Origin: Patescibacteria group bacterium
GTDB lineage: Bacteria; Patescibacteriota; Microgenomatia; UBA1400; PJMF01
Assembly (NCBI GenBank): GCA_016861205.1
Contig: BOKX01000001.1
Coordinates: forward strand, 8,539 to 72,538
DNA length: 64,000 nucleotides
Direction: 5' to 3'
Below are positions 787 through 39,920 of the stretch, one piece after another; the stretch's first letter is position 1, and each line of letters begins with the position of its first letter. Position numbers and translations under genes: made by a program. The notes beneath the pieces are model-generated. The model had not been told where the DNA came from, searched no databases, and was given only the letters and a program-made list of their open reading frames with translations.

Positions 787-2775
787 TTATACCGCACCTA
801 CCAGGGTGACACCTGGTAGTGACAAAATGTGTTGCACAATTTGTTTGCGGACTGGCTCAACTTCAACCACTGACAAGTTCCGATTCGGATCGTGAAAAGT
901 GACTCGGAAGGTGAAGTTGCGCTGGTATGTGTCGCTCAACTCCACGGTTTGTACCAGAGCATCTTGATTCTTTATGGTGTCTAACACGGTACCGACAGCG
1001 ACTCCTTCGGGAATGGTGAATGTAAAGTCTTCATAGACCATCGAGGTTTTAGCCAATGGTTGGTAACTGGGGTGGGTGTTCACCACTGACAGGAAGCGCG
1101 CATCCAAGGGAATGGTGATCGCAGTTTGACCAGCTGGCAAAACTTGGAGCCTTCCAATCTCAGCTTCTGTCCCCTCGCGGTTGATGGCCACGATGGTGGC
1201 CTCGGTAGCGTGAGCAGCAACTGGTTTGATGGTGACGCCTGTCACAAAGAGACTGTCTAACAGTGCCTCAACGGCCCCACGCACGGTACGATACTCAGCT
1301 GTGGAAACCAGCGCCAACTGCAGTGGTTGATGAGGAATGTCGCCGATTGCAGGCTCGTATACACAGGCGATCTCGAAAACCGAGAGCTGAGGTCGTTGTG
1401 GGTTATTGGCAATTAGCTCACAGAGTGACGGAATCAGTGATCGACGTAGGTAGACCCGATCATCAGTCAAAGGGTTAGCTAACTTTAGGTGTTCGTCCAG
1501 TGGATAGCCCGACTCTTGGGCAAGTTCTTCACTCACCATCGAGTAGGTGTACACTTCTTGCCAACCGATATGAGCCAAGAAGGTTTTGATTTTTTGTTCA
1601 ACATCAAAAGTGGTGTGTTCAGGCTTGATTTGCGGAATTGCTGTTGGCATTAACACGCTTGGTAAGCGATGGTAACCGTAAATGCGGGCGATTTCCTCAA
1701 TGACGTCAGCTGGAATAGCGATATCAGGTCGGAAGGTGGGTGGCGTGACACGCAGCTCACTCTCAGTTGCTTCAACCTGACACTCCAAAGTATTGAGGAG
1801 CTCAGTCAATTCTGTGATCGGCAACTCAACACCGAGGTAGGCAGCAATTTGGGCCAACTTGACGGTGACTGTTGCTGGAGCGGTCTCGCCAGGAAAATCG
1901 TCGTACACGGGGCTGGCTACCTGGGCGCCGCACAACTCTTGGTAGAGTTCGACACCGCGAGCCAAGGTTGGTTCAGCTAGGTGTGGATCCACATTTTTTT
2001 CGTTGAGTTGGGCTGCCACAGTACGGATCGCGTGACTCATTGAAGTGGTCCGAACTTTTTTGGCTGGGATTGACTCAATCCAAAGTAAAACACGTTGCGT
2101 TTGGTTATCGACTGAGGTGTTCTGGGTACCTTTGATGGCGGGCAGGTCGATGATGTCACCGGCTGGATTTTTGAAAACTACCTCACCACCTTTGGTCTCG
2201 TACTTTTCACCATCCAAAGTGACGAATGGTTGGCCAGCTGTAGCCTCGACCACCCGGATTTCACCACCCAACTGCATGATTTTGTCGTAATCAAAAGCGT
2301 GACACGGATGTCCTAACTCGTGGGTCACATAGTTTGTGATATCGATGACGCTGTCGTGGACCATTTGGTCAATTTGACGGAGTCGTTTCGCCATCCACTC
2401 TGGAGTGGGAGTGTGATCAACGGCATCCAGTACCACGCAGTGAATTCGCTGGCACAGCTCAGGGTTGTTGATGATCGCCGGCACTTGTAACGGGGCCTGA
2501 CTGGCGACCGTTACGTCAGGTTGAGCGACGGTTTTTAACCGTGCAGCTACGCCAAATTGGGGCAAGATGACCGCTGCTTCGCGAGCAATACCACGGACAG
2601 ACATCATGTCCACGCGATTGGTGGTGACTTCGATGTCATAGACAGGTTCGCCTTCAATTTCATGGATGCGCTCGATTGATGGACCGCAGAGTGATAAATA
2701 TTTTTGAATCTCAGGTGGGGTTGCTTCGGTTTCTAGATGTTCGAGCAACCAAGTGTGTGGGATTAAGATGTTCAT
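787..2775 (-). CDS. pheT: Phenylalanine--tRNA ligase beta subunit
   Basis: 662 aa ORF with the typical PheT architecture (B3/B4 region and B5-core-like segments). It sits immediately downstream of pheS in the conserved infC-rpmI-rplT-pheST operon. Confidence 0.92.
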   Translation of the reverse strand: MNILIPHTWLLEHLETEATPPEIQKYLSLCGPSIERIHEIEGEPVYDIEVTTNRVDMMSVRGIAREAAVILPQFGVAARLKTVAQPDVTVASQAPLQVPAIINNPELCQRIHCVVLDAVDHTPTPEWMAKRLRQIDQMVHDSVIDITNYVTHELGHPCHAFDYDKIMQLGGEIRVVEATAGQPFVTLDGEKYETKGGEVVFKNPAGDIIDLPAIKGTQNTSVDNQTQRVLLWIESIPAKKVRTTSMSHAIRTVAAQLNEKNVDPHLAEPTLARGVELYQELCGAQVASPVYDDFPGETAPATVTVKLAQIAAYLGVELPITELTELLNTLECQVEATESELRVTPPTFRPDIAIPADVIEEIARIYGYHRLPSVLMPTAIPQIKPEHTTFDVEQKIKTFLAHIGWQEVYTYSMVSEELAQESGYPLDEHLKLANPLTDDRVYLRRSLIPSLCELIANNPQRPQLSVFEIACVYEPAIGDIPHQPLQLALVSTAEYRTVRGAVEALLDSLFVTGVTIKPVAAHATEATIVAINREGTEAEIGRLQVLPAGQTAITIPLDARFLSVVNTHPSYQPLAKTSMVYEDFTFTIPEGVAVGTVLDTIKNQDALVQTVELSDTYQRNFTFRVTFHDPNRNLSVVEVEPVRKQIVQHILSLPGVTLVGAV

Positions 2776-2783
2776 ATGGTCCT

Positions 2784-4637
2784 TTAAAATTGCTCCAAGA
2801 ATCGCAACTCGCCGCTGTAGAGCAAGCGAATGTCATCAATGTTTAAACCCTCTTTGAGGGTGTAGGTGCGCTCCACTCCCCAGCCGAAGGCAAAGCCGGT
2901 GTACTCCTCAGGATCGATGCCGCCAGCTTTTAAGACATTGGGATGAACCATTCCTGCCCCGCCCACTTCGTGCCAACCGGATTTGCAGAATCTGCACTTG
3001 GCAGTTTCACCATCACGGCGTACCTCACCAGTGCCGCCACAAATGTGGCAACTGAAGTCGACTTCAAACGAAGGTTCGGTAAATTGAAAATGGAATGGTC
3101 GAATCCGACTTTTGGTACCCGGTCCATAGAACTCTTGGGCAAAGTAATCGAGAGTACCTTTGAGATGTTGAATGGTAATCCCTTTATCCACAACCAAACC
3201 TTCAAATTGATGGAACATCTGGGTGTGAGTCGCATCTTGTTGGCGGCGGTAACACCGGGCGATGTTGATCATTCGGATAGGTGGCTGGCTGTTGAGGCGT
3301 TCCATTTCACGGACCTGGCCACTGGAAGTATGGGGAGTCAGCACAAGCTTACCCTTGGTGGAGCTGGGTTCAGCTGCCACAAAAAAGGTTTCCCACTCAT
3401 CGCGGGCGGGGTGATTTTTGGGCATGTTGAGTGACTCGAACGCATACCAGTCCCAGTCAGCTTCTGGGTAGCGAACTCGGGTGAAACCAACCCGCTCAAA
3501 AATCTGGGTGATCTCGGCAATGGCTTGGGACACTGGATGCATGTGCCCGACTTTGGGTTTGATTCCTGGCAAAGTTACGTCTACCTTGGCGGTTTGCTGG
3601 TTCGAGCCGTAGCTGGCCACGGTTTGTTCGATCTCTTGTTTTAACTGGTTCAGCAGTTGGCCGGCTGAGCGGCGACTTTCGGGAGGTAACTCTTTGAGTT
3701 GTTTTGCCACGTCGCTGAATAAACCTTTTTTACCGAAGTAATTGGTAGTGGCGGCCACCTGGGGAGTTTTCAACGTGAGGCGAATGGCCTCAACCGCGGC
3801 GGTGAACTCATCTGGCAGATCGGCGGTTTGGGTGGCTGATCGAGGCTTGGTTTTTGTCTCGCTAGTTGCAGTGCCACTTTCAGCTGTGGCTGCTGGGTCA
3901 GTCACTTGATACAAGACGCGGAAGTGCCCGTCTTTCACCACAATTTGGGTGGCCGTGATCGGCCAACACTCGGCAGTTGTTTTGAGTTGCGTGCCACCGT
4001 CGGGCATAGGTTCGTACTCGCCAATTTGGACAATGCGGAGGGGTTTGTTGGTGGGAAGGTCGAATGGTAACCGAACGCGTCGCTCGTCTAGTTCATCTTT
4101 GGTAACCATTTCGGTAGAAATAGGTAAGGCCGCCGTTTGGACAGCGTCGAGTTCTTGTTGTATAGCTGGTAGCTGGTCGGCAGTAATTTCTTGGTCAAAC
4201 TCAACATAGTTTTTGCCGTTAATACCATGGTTGCCGTCGAGTCCAATAACTCCTGGAATGACATTTTTAACAGCCTGATCTAAAACGTGTCCAGCCGTGT
4301 GCAGATGCATGTGGGTGTAGCGAAGTGGCCAATCGATGGCCAGCTCAACGGTGTCGCCGACGTGCAGTTCCCCACTCAGTTTGCCCTTGTGCTGAATTTG
4401 GCCGCCGTTGTACGAGACGTGCGAGACTTCAAGTTGACCTTGAGGTCCGGTGATAGTGCCGTGATCGGCCGGTTGGCCACCGCCTTGGGCGTAAAAAATA
4501 GTTTGGTCGAGGATGATAAACGTTTGATTCTGTAACTCACCGATTTCAAGGACTTTTGCTGTCGCCCGTTTTTGGTATGAATCTGCTAAATAAAGTAAGT
4601 CAGTCGACATACGAGTTTCCTTTGTTACCTTTCCCAT
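2784..4637 (-). CDS. pheS: Phenylalanine--tRNA ligase alpha subunit with N-terminal AlaX-like (tRNA_SAD/editing-type) domain fusion
   Basis: The C-terminal ~270 aa is a canonical class II PheS catalytic core (FTRVRYPE, HPARD, LRTHTS-like LTPHTSSGQ, FHQFEGL, GFAFGWGVER). The N-terminal ~250 aa matches AlaX/AlaRS-editing-type proteins (YLxDSY, TIFYAQGGGQPADHGTI, IDWxRRY, HTAGHVL = HxxxH). Confidence 0.88.
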   Translation of the reverse strand: MGKVTKETRMSTDLLYLADSYQKRATAKVLEIGELQNQTFIILDQTIFYAQGGGQPADHGTITGPQGQLEVSHVSYNGGQIQHKGKLSGELHVGDTVELAIDWPLRYTHMHLHTAGHVLDQAVKNVIPGVIGLDGNHGINGKNYVEFDQEITADQLPAIQQELDAVQTAALPISTEMVTKDELDERRVRLPFDLPTNKPLRIVQIGEYEPMPDGGTQLKTTAECWPITATQIVVKDGHFRVLYQVTDPAATAESGTATSETKTKPRSATQTADLPDEFTAAVEAIRLTLKTPQVAATTNYFGKKGLFSDVAKQLKELPPESRRSAGQLLNQLKQEIEQTVASYGSNQQTAKVDVTLPGIKPKVGHMHPVSQAIAEITQIFERVGFTRVRYPEADWDWYAFESLNMPKNHPARDEWETFFVAAEPSSTKGKLVLTPHTSSGQVREMERLNSQPPIRMINIARCYRRQQDATHTQMFHQFEGLVVDKGITIQHLKGTLDYFAQEFYGPGTKSRIRPFHFQFTEPSFEVDFSCHICGGTGEVRRDGETAKCRFCKSGWHEVGGAGMVHPNVLKAGGIDPEEYTGFAFGWGVERTYTLKEGLNIDDIRLLYSGELRFLEQF

Positions 4638-4700
4638 TCTATCTCAAAAAAGCCCCGCTGGTGGCGGGGCTTTCGAAAGTTCTTAAATGTGTGGTTGTGC

Positions 4701-5054
4701 TTACCCGCGCACCTTATCAACGATCTGCTTAAAGGTACTAAAATCAGACACAGCCAAGTCTGATAACACTTTGCGGTCCAACATGATTTGAGCTTTTTTC
4801 AAAGCGTTGATGAAGCGAGAGTAAGAAATCTCACTGCCAGCTTGTTCCAAACCAGCTGAAATGCGAGCAATCCACAGTTGGCGGAAGTCGCGTTTGCGGT
4901 TTTTACGACCAATGAAGGCATATTGACCAGCGTGCAGCAAAGCTTCTTGAGCTCGTTTGTACAGCCGGTTATTTGCGCCACGGAAACCCTTGGTGAGTTT
5001 CAGCACTTTTTTGTGACGTCGTCTGCGAGTAATACCGGTTTTTGTCCTTGGCAT
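4701..5054 (-). CDS. rplT: 50S ribosomal protein L20
   Basis: 117 aa, MPRTKTGITRRRRHKKVLKLTKGF... is a typical L20 sequence, in the operon position after rpmI. Confidence 0.95.
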   Translation of the reverse strand: MPRTKTGITRRRRHKKVLKLTKGFRGANNRLYKRAQEALLHAGQYAFIGRKNRKRDFRQLWIARISAGLEQAGSEISYSRFINALKKAQIMLDRKVLSDLAVSDFSTFKQIVDKVRG

Positions 5055-5083: not shown

Positions 5084-5287
5084 TTAAGCTAGTCCCAGCA
5101 TCCGCTTGATTTTTTTAGCCCAGCGGCCTTTGACTTCAACTGGCACGCGATAAGCTCGGATGGCTTTTTTACTTTTACGGCGGCGCAAGTGACGCATGTT
5201 TTGGTTGCGGCGCAAAACTTTACCGGTGGCGGTAATTTTGAAACGCTTGGCAGCGCCTTTACGGGTTTTCCGTTTCAGAGTTTGCAT
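5084..5287 (-). CDS. rpmI: 50S ribosomal protein L35
   Basis: 67 aa basic protein MQTLKRKTRKGAAKRFKITATGKV..., typical of L35, lying between infC and rplT. Confidence 0.93.
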   Translation of the reverse strand: MQTLKRKTRKGAAKRFKITATGKVLRRNQNMRHLRRRKSKKAIRAYRVPVEVKGRWAKKIKRMLGLA

Positions 5288-5903
5288 GGTTGTCCTCTAC
5301 TCTTGATTCACTTGATACTGTTTTGACTTTAGCTTTTTTGACAGGCATTAATTGAGCGATCAATTTTTTGCCGATCATCTGTGGTTGTAACTCCACAGTG
5401 GCGACTTCAGCTGTTTCACGGAAAATCCGTTGAAGCAACTCGTAGCCAAACTCTTTCTTGGTGATTTGTCGACCTTTTTTGAAGTCGACGGTCAATCTGA
5501 CCTTGTCACCTCGACCCAAAAACTCATGAGCTCGTTTGAGCTTGGTTTGGAGGTCGCCCTCACCGATGAACGGTGAGAACTGCAACTCCTTGAGATCTTG
5601 AGTTCTCGATTTTTTGCGATTTTCCGACTCACGCTGCTGGAGTTGATACTTGTACTTAGCCAACTCGATGATTTTGGTGATAGGTGGTTGAGCTTTCTCA
5701 GTCACCAACACTAAATCTTTTTGTTCAGCTTGTGCTTGGGCCAGCGCTTGACTGGTCGGCATGACGCCAACCATCTCACCACGTTCGTTCAACACTCTCA
5801 CTTCCGGAACCCGGATTTGATGGTTGACCGTAATGTAATGCGCGGTCGGTCGCTTTTTGATGAGCCTTTTTCTAATCACAGACAGGATATTATACCACTC
5901 CAT
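5259..5903 (-). CDS. infC: Translation initiation factor IF-3 (true start probably a non-AUG codon internal to this ORF)
   Basis: The IF3 core is recognisable (VRVLNERGEMVGVM, DLVLVTEKAQPPITKII, FKKGRQITKKEFG). The ORF has an N-terminal extension of ~15-25 aa. infC classically uses AUU/AUA starts, so the real start is likely further downstream in the transcript. Confidence 0.85.
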   Translation of the reverse strand: MEWYNILSVIRKRLIKKRPTAHYITVNHQIRVPEVRVLNERGEMVGVMPTSQALAQAQAEQKDLVLVTEKAQPPITKIIELAKYKYQLQQRESENRKKSRTQDLKELQFSPFIGEGDLQTKLKRAHEFLGRGDKVRLTVDFKKGRQITKKEFGYELLQRIFRETAEVATVELQPQMIGKKLIAQLMPVKKAKVKTVSSESRVEDNHANSETENP

Positions 5904-5964
5904 TGCCGATTGAGAACTAGATTGTTATAATTGGGGTTCTGGAAGTCATTTTTGTTCCAGAGCT

Positions 5965-6038
5965 GGACGGTTAGCTCAGTTGGTTAGAGCGCTTCGTTGA
6001 CATCGAAGAGGTCACAGGTTCGAGTCCTGTATCGTCCA
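5965..6038 (+). tRNA. tRNA-Val (anticodon GAC)
   Basis: Cloverleaf: acceptor GGACGGT/ATCGTCC, D-arm GCTC..GAGC, anticodon stem CTTCG/CGAAG with loop TTGACAT, T-arm ACAGGTTCGAGTCCTGT. No encoded CCA. Confidence 0.9.
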
Positions 6039-6064
6039 CTTTTTAGTCGAGTTGAGTTCACACT

Positions 6065-6847
6065 TTACCCAAGAGGCTTTTGTAGCACGATCACCGCTCG
6101 TTGCACCGCTTCCCCTTCGTGCCAATCGGTTTCGCCCTCAGCAGGTGCCCAATAAACGGCATCCAGTATCGTGAAACCTTGTTCACTCGCTATGTCGAGT
6201 AAAGTATCAAACAAAGTTTTGTAGTACTGTGGGTTGATGATAGCGTCGGGGTGCATCTCGAGTACTCGCTGAACTTCACGCTCAAAGAGATCAGGAGTTT
6301 TGGCCTTAACGAAGTTAAAATCACCTCTGGATGAGGGCAATTCATAGGTAAAACCTGACCAACCGACGGGTTGAGTGACGAGTAACGATAGTCCACCTGG
6401 TTTCAAAACCCGGTAGTACTCGCGCAGAGCTTGGGCCTTGTCGTAGATGTGGGGTAGAACGTCCTTGCAGGTGATGAGATCGAAACCGGCGTCAGCGAAA
6501 GGCAGGATGTTTCCCCTAGCTTCAACTGTCAGCGGATGGTGCTGAGCTTGGAGAGCCTCTGGCTGTAGATCAAGTCGCACCACTCGGGTCTTGGGCTGGT
6601 GGGTTTCGAGCCAGTTTGCTAGTTCTCCTAGTCCACTGCCCACGTCTAGTGCCAAGGTGCTTTCCCCCAGCAACTCCGTCACAGGCTGCAGAACTTCCAC
6701 TTGGAAACTAGTACCGGCATGTGGAGTATGACCAAAATCGTGAATATCTTGTTTGACTGTTTCAGGGTCACGTGCCAGACGGTAGCGAGCATCAGCACTC
6801 ACTGGCACAGAGTACTCTTTTGGGATTTCACTAGATCGATGTGACAT
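6065..6847 (-). CDS. Class I SAM-dependent methyltransferase
   Basis: Motif I LDVGSGLGELANWL and the post-motif LKPGG are typical of the Rossmann-fold MTase family. Confidence 0.65.
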   Translation of the reverse strand: MSHRSSEIPKEYSVPVSADARYRLARDPETVKQDIHDFGHTPHAGTSFQVEVLQPVTELLGESTLALDVGSGLGELANWLETHQPKTRVVRLDLQPEALQAQHHPLTVEARGNILPFADAGFDLITCKDVLPHIYDKAQALREYYRVLKPGGLSLLVTQPVGWSGFTYELPSSRGDFNFVKAKTPDLFEREVQRVLEMHPDAIINPQYYKTLFDTLLDIASEQGFTILDAVYWAPAEGETDWHEGEAVQRAVIVLQKPLG

Positions 6848-15499: not shown

Positions 15500-15833
15500 T
15501 GGTGGGCACAGTTAAGTGATGGCCCCAAGCTCTCGAAGTTTGGGGAGGAAAGTCCGGACAGCAGGACAAAAGGTGCTTTGTCGAAAGGCAAAGGCTCCAC
15601 CTCGGTGGAGACAGTTAGAGCCACAGTGACGATGCGGGTGGCGCCGCGTGAAACGACCAAGCCTCTGGGTATCTCGCTTCGGCGAGAGGGTAATCCTCCC
15701 TGCTGCAACTGCCGAACTTCACCGTAATGGAGTTGTCCCCTTTTCCTCATTTTTAATGAGGTCGGTGATAAGGACGCAGGCATAGATAGATCATCACTCT
15801 CGACAGAATCTGGCTTATCGACTGTGCCCACTT
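15500..15833 (+). ncRNA. rnpB: RNase P RNA (bacterial type A)
   Basis: Conserved P4 strands GGAGGAAAGTCCGG (5' part) and ACAGAATCTGGCTTATCG (3' part). P1 is formed by GTGGGCACAGT (15502-15512) pairing with ACTGTGCCCAC (15821-15831). Confidence 0.88.
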
Positions 15834-26232: not shown

Positions 26233-27975
26233 TTACTTCAGCCGATAAACCGAGTAATTTTCGGTCTGGTTGATCAATGTTCCAACCTGTGCCCAGTGGG
26301 CTGGTCTGGCTCCCCACTCTTCAAGTTCGGTTGGTCCGAGGACCACATAATCCAGATCGTACCGCTCGAGGATATCTCGATGGGCGACGGGATTTGCAAA
26401 CACGGTGCGAACATCTTGTTCGATACCTTGGTAATCGTAACCATGCGTCCAAACCCAACCGCGGTAGGCTAACATTGGTTGTCGGCCGGCCAAGTTGTAC
26501 ACCCAGTGGTTGTGCTGATCACTGGTCAGCCAGCGAGACCGAGGTTCTGTTTCCTGGCGGGCCCACTCGGCCAGTTGCCATTCTTCTGCGGAGTACAAAG
26601 TATAGCTGTGAAGATCAGTGCGCAGCACCCAGTAGGCATCCAGAGCACCAGCCGCAAACAGGCTCAACCCAATGAGGCTCAACAGGGTGAGTTTGCTGGC
26701 GCGGAAGATTTCTGCCAACCAGCCATGAGCCGGTAGCCACCACCGTTGCCAAGTGCGAGTGAGCCACCCCGCAGCTAGGCCCGAAATACCTACCGAGGCC
26801 CATACTACCAGTTTGGTGTTGTCCCAAATATAAGGTTGGAACAAAAATAGATTGATGGCTGCAAAGATAGTCCAAAAAGGCGCTATCCAGCAGGCTCTTC
26901 TCCACCAATCTTTCTTCGGCCACTGCAACCACTGCCAGCTACCCACCACCGCCAACGCAGGTACCAATCCCCAGTTCTTAAACCACCACCAGAACCAGTT
27001 CTCACCGTACTCTGTGGCGTACCAGCCCGGGTACCACGAGATGAAGTGTCTGGTGGTATGGGCAGCAAAGAAGTAAACATACAGTGGCGTGGCAACCAAA
27101 ACGGCCGGCACACCAATGGCCGCCCAGCGGTAGAACCAGGCTGGGATCTGTGCAGATTTGGTTGGCATGGTAGCTACTGCCCAACCGGCCAAAATACAAC
27201 TGACAGCCAAAAATGAGTGGGTGTGAATAATGGGTAAAATGCCCCACCCCAGACCAACCATCACTCGCAGGCCAAGCTGCCAGCGTCTGGTACGCTTAGA
27301 CAAGCGAGTCCAAGCCGTACCACGTTCCCACCGCCAGATAAGTATTAGCAGGGCCAATGCGATGGGAAAACCCAGATTAAATGCCCGCTGTGGCACGATC
27401 ATGCTGTCGATGACCGACATCCAGCGCAGACCAGCTGAGTCAAGATGTGTGTACTCGTGTTGAGGGTTGAGAATGGCCAGCCATGGTTGGCTAGCTTTGA
27501 AAACATCGTTCAAGTACCAAATAAAACCGAGCCCACCGTTACATAGAAACAGCAGCGTGGCCACTATGGTTGTCGCCTTCGACTTAAACCAGACCTGATA
27601 CCACCATCCCAGTCCCGCCACGATGGCCAATGAACCCAACCAGCTCAAAATGACAAACGAAGAGATAAATGGGACCCCGGCTCGGATGGCTACAGCCGCT
27701 AGCCAGTTAGTAATGAATGGGTAACTCAGCCGTTGATCAATCAGGAACGGGCTAGCCAAGTCACTCAAAGACACATACGCAAATCGGCTGCCCATGGTGA
27801 AATGAGCTGCCCAGTCACCCCAAATGTTAATGTGACCAGCGACAATATTGCCGGCTACATCATTCCAAAAAGCATGTGTCCAAAACCAGGAAAAATACAA
27901 AAACCAGATAGCCCAAAAAGCCACCCACCACCACGGCCACCGTTTGAGCCAGCGGTTCCCAAAATCCATCATCAT
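26233..27975 (-). CDS. Large polytopic membrane protein with C-terminal soluble domain (possible GT-C-fold glycosyltransferase)
   Basis: About 12 TM helices with an extremely Trp-rich N-terminus (WPWWWVAFWAIWFLYFSWFW). The acidic-loop candidate WNDVAGNIVAGHINIWGDW follows the first TM. A ~140 aa hydrophilic C-terminal domain follows the TM region. Confidence 0.3.
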   Translation of the reverse strand: MMMDFGNRWLKRWPWWWVAFWAIWFLYFSWFWTHAFWNDVAGNIVAGHINIWGDWAAHFTMGSRFAYVSLSDLASPFLIDQRLSYPFITNWLAAVAIRAGVPFISSFVILSWLGSLAIVAGLGWWYQVWFKSKATTIVATLLFLCNGGLGFIWYLNDVFKASQPWLAILNPQHEYTHLDSAGLRWMSVIDSMIVPQRAFNLGFPIALALLILIWRWERGTAWTRLSKRTRRWQLGLRVMVGLGWGILPIIHTHSFLAVSCILAGWAVATMPTKSAQIPAWFYRWAAIGVPAVLVATPLYVYFFAAHTTRHFISWYPGWYATEYGENWFWWWFKNWGLVPALAVVGSWQWLQWPKKDWWRRACWIAPFWTIFAAINLFLFQPYIWDNTKLVVWASVGISGLAAGWLTRTWQRWWLPAHGWLAEIFRASKLTLLSLIGLSLFAAGALDAYWVLRTDLHSYTLYSAEEWQLAEWARQETEPRSRWLTSDQHNHWVYNLAGRQPMLAYRGWVWTHGYDYQGIEQDVRTVFANPVAHRDILERYDLDYVVLGPTELEEWGARPAHWAQVGTLINQTENYSVYRLK

Positions 27976-38068: not shown

Positions 38069-39545
<1,477 letters not shown>

Positions 39546-39920
39546 AAAAAAAGTTTGATTGCTCTATTTAAAAAAATTGTACGGATTTTCTGTCCATCGA
39601 AAGATGGTAGAAATTCCGACAATTCTAGATCCGAAGATCTAGAGTCCAGTTTCTACCACCATGTTCGTTTCAGATGATGTATGAATGTATATTCATACAT
39701 TTTTTCCTTAGTGAATGATGGTTAGCTGTCAAATTCACTAAGGTCTTAACTTGTTAACGATCATAGAAACTCATGCAAAAACCCCACTGGTGTTTCACCG
39801 GTGGTGCTATACTGAGTTTAAATCTGAGACTAGTTCCCGTGTGGGCTTGGTCCGAAGAAACATTATTCTAACAAAATTGAGCCAGATGTCAAAGGGAAGA
39901 ATTACAAGGAAAGGAAACCT

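Follow-up and report, generated by a model that had tools for sequence, protein, structure and literature searches.

The 64,000-nucleotide stretch of contig BOKX01000001.1 analyzed here (the window), from a Patescibacteria group bacterium, encodes the alpha subunit of phenylalanyl-tRNA synthetase (PheRS) in an unusual form: a domain resembling the alanyl-tRNA editing protein AlaX-M is joined in frame to the N terminus of PheS. A single uninterrupted open reading frame (ORF) of 617 codons on the reverse strand (2784-4637), without stop or frame change, covers both parts and corresponds to a protein of 617 amino acids. The gene order infC-rpmI-rplT-fusion-pheT is the classical arrangement, and this synteny is kept in relatives, as seen in Pfam-labelled loci. 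Translation probably begins at the second in-frame ATG (position 4610, Met10), which would give a protein of 608 amino acids, since an AAGGAA sequence is found 6 nucleotides upstream and near-identical relatives (98% identity) are called at 608 amino acids. The features of the locus are collected in Table 1.

Table 1. Features of the alaX-pheS fusion gene and its operon, in window coordinates
Feature	Position	Strand	Basis or remark
alaX-pheS fusion gene	2784..4637	-	longest ORF 617 aa; 608 aa from the probable start
AlaX-M-type domain, N-terminal beta-barrel and editing core	3897..4604	-	residues 12-247; NF040865, PDB 2e1b, AF2 model, Foldseek
GGGQ glycine-rich motif of the beta-barrel	4473..4484	-	residues 52-55; invariant or nearly so in 70-130 fusions; also in stand-alone AlaX-M homologues
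HTAGH (HxxxH motif; H113, H117)	4287..4301	-	aligned to HxxxH of P. horikoshii AlaX-M
DGGTQ (D213-Q217), CxGxH position	3987..4001	-	aligned to CGGTH of 2e1b and 9iuw
Low-complexity linker	3813..3896	-	residues ~248-275; unconserved, low pLDDT
PheS N-terminal coiled coil	3588..3812	-	residues ~276-350; PF02912 at 298-341; model helices 276-345
PheS class II catalytic core and stop codon	2784..3587	-	residues 351-617; PF01409, Foldseek
pheT (PheRS beta subunit, 662 aa)	787..2775	-	directly downstream; Pfam B3_4, B5, tRNA_synthFbeta, FDX-ACB
rplT	4701-5054	-	upstream operon gene
rpmI	5084-5287	-	upstream operon gene
infC	5259-5903	-	upstream operon gene
GC-rich hairpin followed by U-run	4648..4676	-	between rplT stop and fusion start; sequence and RNA fold

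The initial annotation had proposed that about 250 extra N-terminal residues of this PheS form an AlaX/AlaRS-editing-type domain, and profile, sequence and structure comparisons agree with this proposal. Residues 12-234 align with positions 1-221 of the 234-position NCBIfam profile for AlaXM (NF040865; 2.9e-38, 131.9 bits), and Pfam detects a C-terminal piece of PF01411 (AlaRS) at residues 36-103. In a phmmer search of PDB sequences, the N-terminal 274 residues match the AlaX-M proteins of P. horikoshii (2e1b, 1e-20) and P. furiosus (9iuw, 2e-20), as well as the beta-barrel and editing region of an archaeal AlaRS (2zze residues 516-748, 1e-15). An AlphaFold2 (AF2) model was built from 70 fused homologues. 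Its per-residue confidence (pLDDT) is 94-98 across the AlaX-like domain and falls below 50 at residues 258-271, with a whole-protein predicted template modelling score (pTM) of 0.50, and the predicted picture is that of two confident domains joined by a floppy tether. Foldseek comparison of the N-terminal part with PDB structures returns the AlaRS beta-barrel and editing domain of 2zze_A (root-mean-square deviation 2.7 A over 256 columns, E 1e-17) and the AlaX-like protein 3kew_A (TM 0.84).

The alignments with PDB sequences also locate the active-site motifs. H113 and H117 (HTAGH) stand opposite the two histidines of HxxxH in AlaX-M, a motif already recognized as retained, and D213 and Q217 stand opposite the Cys and the His of CGGTH. 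The underlying DNA (3987-4001, reverse strand) reads GAC GGT GGC ACG CAA, that is DGGTQ, so that two of the four canonical zinc ligands are indeed changed. A ThrRS N2-type editing domain was considered and rejected: ten residues before the Cys, where ThrRS has an invariant hydrophobic-shell Tyr, the window protein has V203. This position, ten residues upstream of Asp213, is aliphatic as in AlaRS-type sites, with V, L, M or I among the fusions.

The C-terminal part is a complete PheS. Pfam aligns the entire PheS core profile (PF01409, positions 1-246 of 246, 7e-79) to residues 351-617 and the N-terminal coiled coil (PF02912) to residues 298-341; the protein scores 244.1 bits against NCBIfam TIGR00468 (pheS), above the equivalog cutoff of 237.45; and in Foldseek the C-terminal part resembles PheRS alpha chains, with TM scores of up to 0.85. 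Ordinary PheS proteins begin aligning at query residue ~276-299. The gene product thus resembles canonical bacterial PheS (TIGR00468) in having, at residues ~276-617, a complete coiled coil and class II core, and in its paired pheT. It differs in its ~265 extra N-terminal residues and in its partner PheT, which lacks domain B2. The catalytic core also contains a CxxC...CxxC insertion at residues 530-551 (window 2985-3050, reverse strand). As its four cysteines (C530, C533, C548, C551) are invariant among the 70 fused homologues, this insertion is probably a small zinc knuckle; motifs resembling it occur in Firmicutes PheS.

A protein search with the N-domain only returned only stand-alone AlaX-like proteins, an early hint that the fusion might be unique or artefactual, but searches with the full-length protein overturned this idea. 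A word-indexed search found at least 120 clusters of fused proteins (549-670 amino acids, 46-98% identity), each containing both PF01411 and PF01409. HMMER, run with the full-length protein against 1.84 billion cluster representatives, detected fusions of 538-627 amino acids at 31-57% identity, including about 11 deeper representatives beyond the 120 clusters. The fusion clusters derive from NCBI, JGI, ENA and Logan assemblies, and contigs of 0.9-1.2 Mb are among their sources. Every fusion that bears a name is called 'phenylalanine--tRNA ligase subunit alpha' (for example, KKT31819.1, PIR59332.1 and MFH2118320.1). The named hosts, ultra-small bacteria from uncultured lineages, belong to the Microgenomates group, Pacebacteria/Paceibacterota, Woesebacteria, Gottesmanbacteria and the 'Patescibacteria group'. 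Other genomes of the candidate phyla radiation (CPR) and Saccharibacteria had been suggested as places to look for the same fusion: the suggestion held for Microgenomates-type CPR, but the named relatives are not Saccharibacteria. Among the matches listed from a scan of GTDB genomes with the N-domain alignment, whose FYPxGGGQ pattern is generic, most were AlaRS or AlaX from unrelated phyla, and two were fusions (L003, L004).

Pairwise divergence of the N-domain is correlated with that of the PheS core (Spearman 0.76), with the N-domain evolving faster (mean pairwise identity 0.44 versus 0.72). Since the divergence of one part tracks that of the other, the two have largely evolved as one gene. 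One locus could be taken to suggest an artefact in which an insertion or deletion merged a separate upstream alaX with pheS: in L001 (6704-6858), the AlaX-like and pheS ORFs overlap by ~70 nucleotides in frames offset by one base, and single-base events at this junction therefore occur or are mis-called. Either the two genes truly overlap here, or a single base was misassembled in what is in fact a fusion. However, the in-frame fusion is present in more than 120 independent clusters from all four sequence sources, long contigs included, and an artefact, to which we assign next to no probability, is effectively refuted by this recurrence. Both grounds on which the initial annotation might have failed, a lack of AlaX homology and a frameshifted separate upstream gene, were looked at and neither was found; the fusion to a complete PheS is in frame, as it had stated. 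We judge it secure that this is a genuine gene fusion in Microgenomates-type CPR bacteria, formed from neighbouring genes, flexibly tethered, and passed on vertically with a split, loss or swap now and then.

Other loci carry the two parts in different states. In L086, a 246-residue stand-alone protein of the DGGTQ type ends with its own stop codon and is followed by ~200 nucleotides with stops in all frames, then by pheS. L005 has the order rplT, a 239-residue AlaX-like gene (PDGGVQ), a small gene of 116 residues, a 349-residue pheS and pheT. A plain PheS of 367 residues without any AlaX part is encoded in L083-L085 (protein P0090), although its core is 81% identical to that of the window protein; this locus is rearranged (rplT, Wzy, PBP, pheS, pheT), with pheST shifted behind the Wzy and PBP genes. 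In L087 (2716-4521, protein P0313) the synteny is the same and the PheS core is 81-85% identical, but the N-domain is a canonical AlaX-M (HTIGH...PCGGTH), which best matches stand-alone AlaX (43%) rather than the Asp-type fused domains (~38-40%). By sequence, this looks like an in-place domain replacement, and the presence of a canonical CGGTH domain in this place implies that selection favours having an AlaX-type module there. The linker appears unconserved and disordered in both alignment and model, with a mean top-residue frequency of 0.19 versus 0.56 in the AlaX domain and 0.76 in the PheS core. From these states we infer that alaX once resided in the pheST operon as a gene of its own and became fused to pheS, and that the module was later kept, split, swapped or lost depending on the lineage. 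In this history, an AlaX-M-type editing gene located between rplT and pheS was joined in frame to pheS by a flexible linker of ~30-70 residues.

The CxxxH motif had been described as degenerate in the initial annotation, a term that a census of 130 fusions does not bear out. DGGTQ is found in 97 of them (98 in an alignment-based count), DGGTH in 25, CGGTH in three, DGGTL in two, and CGATH and DGGTI in one each. Asp occupies the Cys position in 126 fusions, the other four having Cys, and the fourth ligand position alone drifts (Q, H, L or I). HxxGH is present in 129 of the 130, the remaining one reading QSAGH. In the 70-sequence alignment, G52, G53, Q55, D58, G60, H113, G116, H117, H137, K198, R201, G214 and G215 are invariant, and G54, D213 and T216 nearly so (at least 90%). 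Compared with stand-alone homologues, the fused clade has invariants of its own: G116, H137 (100% conserved), G138, L194, K198, L200 and Y243 (130 of 130). Conserved fused-clade residues G116, H137, G138, K198, D213 and Y243 are predicted to line or adjoin the pocket.

The Asp variant also occurs outside the fusions, for instance in a stand-alone protein from a Micrarchaeota metagenome-assembled genome (MAG; L008). A Nanoarchaeia AlaX-M (P0016, QADGGTH) reaches 289.6 bits against the 300-bit AlaXM cutoff, and of the 120 homologues that match it best, no fewer than 117 have Asp where Cys would stand (sampled DPANN proteins: P0016, P0378-P0496). Some of these homologues bear names at NCBI: AlaXM for several from Nanoarchaeia, Nanoarchaeota and Aenigmarchaeota, and alanyl-tRNA editing protein or AlaX for the others, from Woesearchaeota. 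With Asp thus the norm in the sampled DPANN proteins as well, DGGTQ is, as judged from these alignments, a conserved natural variant and not decay. A separate case is a 253-residue stand-alone AlaX-M-like protein from a Gracilibacteria MAG (L015, ~5953-6711), which has an apparent TEGGAI at the CxGxH position (a regular-expression match only); here both ligands would be changed.

Several known systems can be compared with the window domain. It shares with AlaX-M (P. horikoshii PH0108-type, PDB 2E1B; NF040865) a beta-barrel with GGGQ and an editing core, the HxxxH motif, a length of ~235 residues, and the aliphatic residue ten before the Cys or Asp (V203); R240 is also present in the window protein. 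The family as such is characterized by hydrolysis of Ser- and Gly-tRNA-Ala, with Ala-tRNA-Ala spared. The window domain differs from AlaX-M in its fusion to PheS, in DGGTQ replacing CxGxH, in a score well short of the profile cutoff (131.9 versus 300 bits), and in that its clade has G116, H137, G138, K198 and Y243 as invariants and relaxed R111, K235 and R240 positions. The AlaX-M proteins of DPANN (for example, HLC57974.1, an 'alanyl-tRNA editing protein' at NCBI) likewise have Asp for the Cys of CxGxH and belong to an ultra-small symbiotic lineage. However, they are free-standing, still end the motif with His (DGGTH), have not lost the basic residues of the C terminus, and are only ~32-34% identical to the window domain. 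The cis-editing domains of AlaRS and ThrRS have a homologous fold and motifs and are also covalently attached to a class II synthetase (PMC12003907). Those domains proofread the product of their own enzyme, whereas here the known errors of the host (Tyr) are handled by an unrelated domain of PheT.

The partner PheT contains B1, B3/4, B5, core and FDX-ACB domains, and lacks the ~110-residue B2 domain (tRNA_bind OB-fold) of E. coli and Thermus PheT; its residue 45 aligns to residue 157 of the E. coli protein, where the alignment with E. coli PheT starts. Seven related loci also encode a B2-less PheT (659-690 amino acids). The B3/B4 editing residues (E. coli N254, H265, G318, T354 and A356) are conserved in eight loci, with and without the AlaX domain, and the equivalent of E334 is ambiguous (E, D or Q after a two-residue shift). 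PheT's own editing site looks intact by sequence. Because its residues are conserved whether or not the AlaX domain is present, the domain is not substituting for a lost PheRS editing site, and a role as replacement for decayed PheT editing was ruled out. Compensation for the missing B2 is also unsupported, as the 666-residue PheT of the domain-less relative is without B2 as well.

The reading we favour, and whose chances we judge to be about even, is that the N-domain remains functional, as an AlaX-type deacylase module that lacks the thiol, has Asp where Cys would be, and is tethered to PheRS. The aminoacyl-A76 pocket (GGGQ loop, HxxGH and DGGT) would be under strong purifying selection, with the Asp carboxylate doing the work normally done by the Cys thiol and with no need for a fourth zinc ligand. 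Such a domain would most likely still clear tRNA, by hydrolysis, of small amino acids attached in error, ancestrally Ser or Gly. Its site, thiol-free and either zinc-independent or of a His2-Asp type, would be carried on the (alpha-beta)2 PheRS particle, and its target could be mischarged tRNA-Ala, met in trans, or tRNA-Phe as it departs from PheRS. A 2025 study describes the HXXXH/CXGXH site as 'invariant across life forms'; in that work, removal of zinc from E. coli AlaRS and P. horikoshii AlaX-M altered neither stability nor deacylation of Ser/Gly-tRNA-Ala, and the role found for the metal was mainly to guard against H2O2 oxidation of the Cys thiol, on which substrate binding depends (PMC12003907). 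Zinc being dispensable for AlaX activity, the loss of zinc ligands is no evidence of inactivity.

Several observations weigh against this reading. The Cys of CxGxH is crucial for proofreading according to mutational work as cited in PMC12003907, and Q217 removes a second ligand. The N-domain does not reach the curated AlaXM cutoff. Free AlaX proteins hardly vary at R111, K235 and R240, whereas the fused clade tolerates other residues there, which argues against unchanged recognition of tRNA-Ala; in the R240 column, R or K is found in 60 of 60 stand-alone Cys-type homologues versus ~56% of 126 Asp-type fusions. The window protein itself retains R240, at the start of the last strand, in what we take, from our own alignment, to be the region of the G3:U70-reading Arg of E. 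coli AlaRS (R693). AlaXp-M recognizes G3:U70, and a single Arg may set specificity (PMC11295145). The sequences thus hint that tRNA recognition is altered in the fused clade. Furthermore, the plain PheS of a relative with 81% PheS-core identity indicates that the AlaX domain is not essential to PheRS. As to the rest of the 64-kb window, neither alaS nor a second AlaX was detected in it, among the ten largest ORFs or by tblastn, and the window's tRNAs (Val, Cys and Ile) are uninformative as to tRNA-Ala or tRNA-Phe features.

We may also hypothesize that the domain was re-tooled into a PheRS-specific proofreading or hand-off module, acting in cis on tRNA-Phe as it leaves PheS, with a changed amino-acid specificity and as an extra checkpoint beside PheT B3/B4. 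Linkage of the AlaX-like gene to pheS holds for separate as well as fused genes, and in the fetched loci the stand-alone AlaX genes of other CPR lineages are not adjacent to pheS. The clade's own conserved residues at or near the pocket fit this hypothesis, as does the relaxation of R111, K235 and R240, which is expected if the tether supplies tRNA delivery; the linker would be long enough for a bound tRNA acceptor end. Yet the known error of PheRS is Tyr or m-Tyr, far larger than the Ser/Gly-sized AlaX pocket, and with the PheT editing residues conserved in either case no PheRS editing gap is evident. That a canonical AlaX-M domain can sit at the same position (P0313), and that a close relative does without the domain altogether, also makes such a specialized module improbable in our view. 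The closest precedent for the fusion, cytoplasmic TrpRS of apicomplexans, points to another possibility (PMC3680381). This enzyme, neither an AlaRS nor a ThrRS, bears an N-terminal AlaX-family domain (AXD) on a long flexible linker; the AXD is of the single-domain AlaX-S type, with none of the four motif residues left, and is regarded as non-catalytic, whereas the window domain is of the two-part AlaX-M type, has a conserved pocket and is hosted by a bacterial PheS.

By analogy, the window domain could be a non-catalytic tRNA-binding or chaperone domain aiding tRNA capture by the B2-less PheRS, which would agree with its own long flexible linker, with the change of two of the four canonical ligands and with the absence of B2 from PheT. 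We hold this to be doubtful: Pf-TrpRS has D, S, N and V in place of the four motif residues, but the fusions keep GGGQ, HxxGH and DGGT almost without exception, and such constancy would be difficult to account for if the pocket had no function. Moreover, B2 is also missing in the domain-less relative, so that there is no pattern of compensation, and basic surface residues of the tRNA-contact type are relaxed in the fusions, not reinforced. Far less probable still is a neutral by-product of genome compaction, in which an intervening stop was lost and what precedes PheS is now decaying or without function. Related lineages do include split, fused and domain-less forms, and the N-domain evolves faster than the PheS core. 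However, the architecture is kept in at least 130 sequences, down to 31% identity, with conserved pocket motifs and a high-confidence model, and one lineage has a canonical AlaX-M domain at the same position; the genome-reduction fossil envisaged by the initial annotation fits poorly with this conservation. A last proposal extends the deacylase reading, and we regard it as speculative and rather unlikely: Asp-type AlaX might represent a thiol-free, zinc-independent, oxidation-proof site common to the ultra-small, symbiotic radiations of CPR and DPANN, recruited in Microgenomates to serve on PheRS as a general deacylase that possibly compensates for a small AlaRS. A 'small AlaRS' without the beta-barrel domain has been reported in CPR and DPANN (bioRxiv 10.1101/2023.05.29.542759), and would make an AlaX-M module valuable. 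If this proposal is true, PheRS would be a hub of fidelity whose reach extends beyond a single amino acid.

The hairpin between rplT and the fusion has an 11-bp GC-rich stem (z = -2.06, RNA fold), and the first in-frame ATG (4637) lies only 12 nucleotides downstream of the hairpin and U-run. Its predicted fold suggests that it could be a terminator- or attenuator-like element before pheS; a consensus terminator scan did not pick up the hairpin at 4648-4676. Elsewhere in the window, a complete 16S rRNA gene is found at 38071-39551 (reverse strand), with no 23S or 5S match anywhere in the 64 kb, so that the rRNA genes appear unlinked. An RNase P RNA (class A) at 15504-15833 (forward strand) scores barely above the Rfam threshold (105 versus 100 bits), and a 580-residue ORF at 26233-27975 (reverse strand) has no Pfam match at E <= 1e-5.

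The initial annotation knew of no described AlaX-PheS fusion, and our full-text literature searches, which did not cover all journals, likewise yielded no description of one, nor any mention of Asp-type AlaX, the DPANN proteins included. The combination of AlaX-M and PheS appears to be undescribed though widespread; fusion sequences have been public since about 2015, labelled as plain PheS. Because each of them carries only the label 'phenylalanine--tRNA ligase subunit alpha', inventories of gene function in CPR genomes miss the editing-type domain. The hundreds of CPR and DPANN sequences with Asp for Cys run counter to the stated invariance of the site and constitute a natural experiment on the model in which zinc shields the Cys (PMC12003907). 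The coexistence of fused, split, swapped and lost states offers a tractable system in which to ask why the editing module of one amino acid couples to the synthetase of another.

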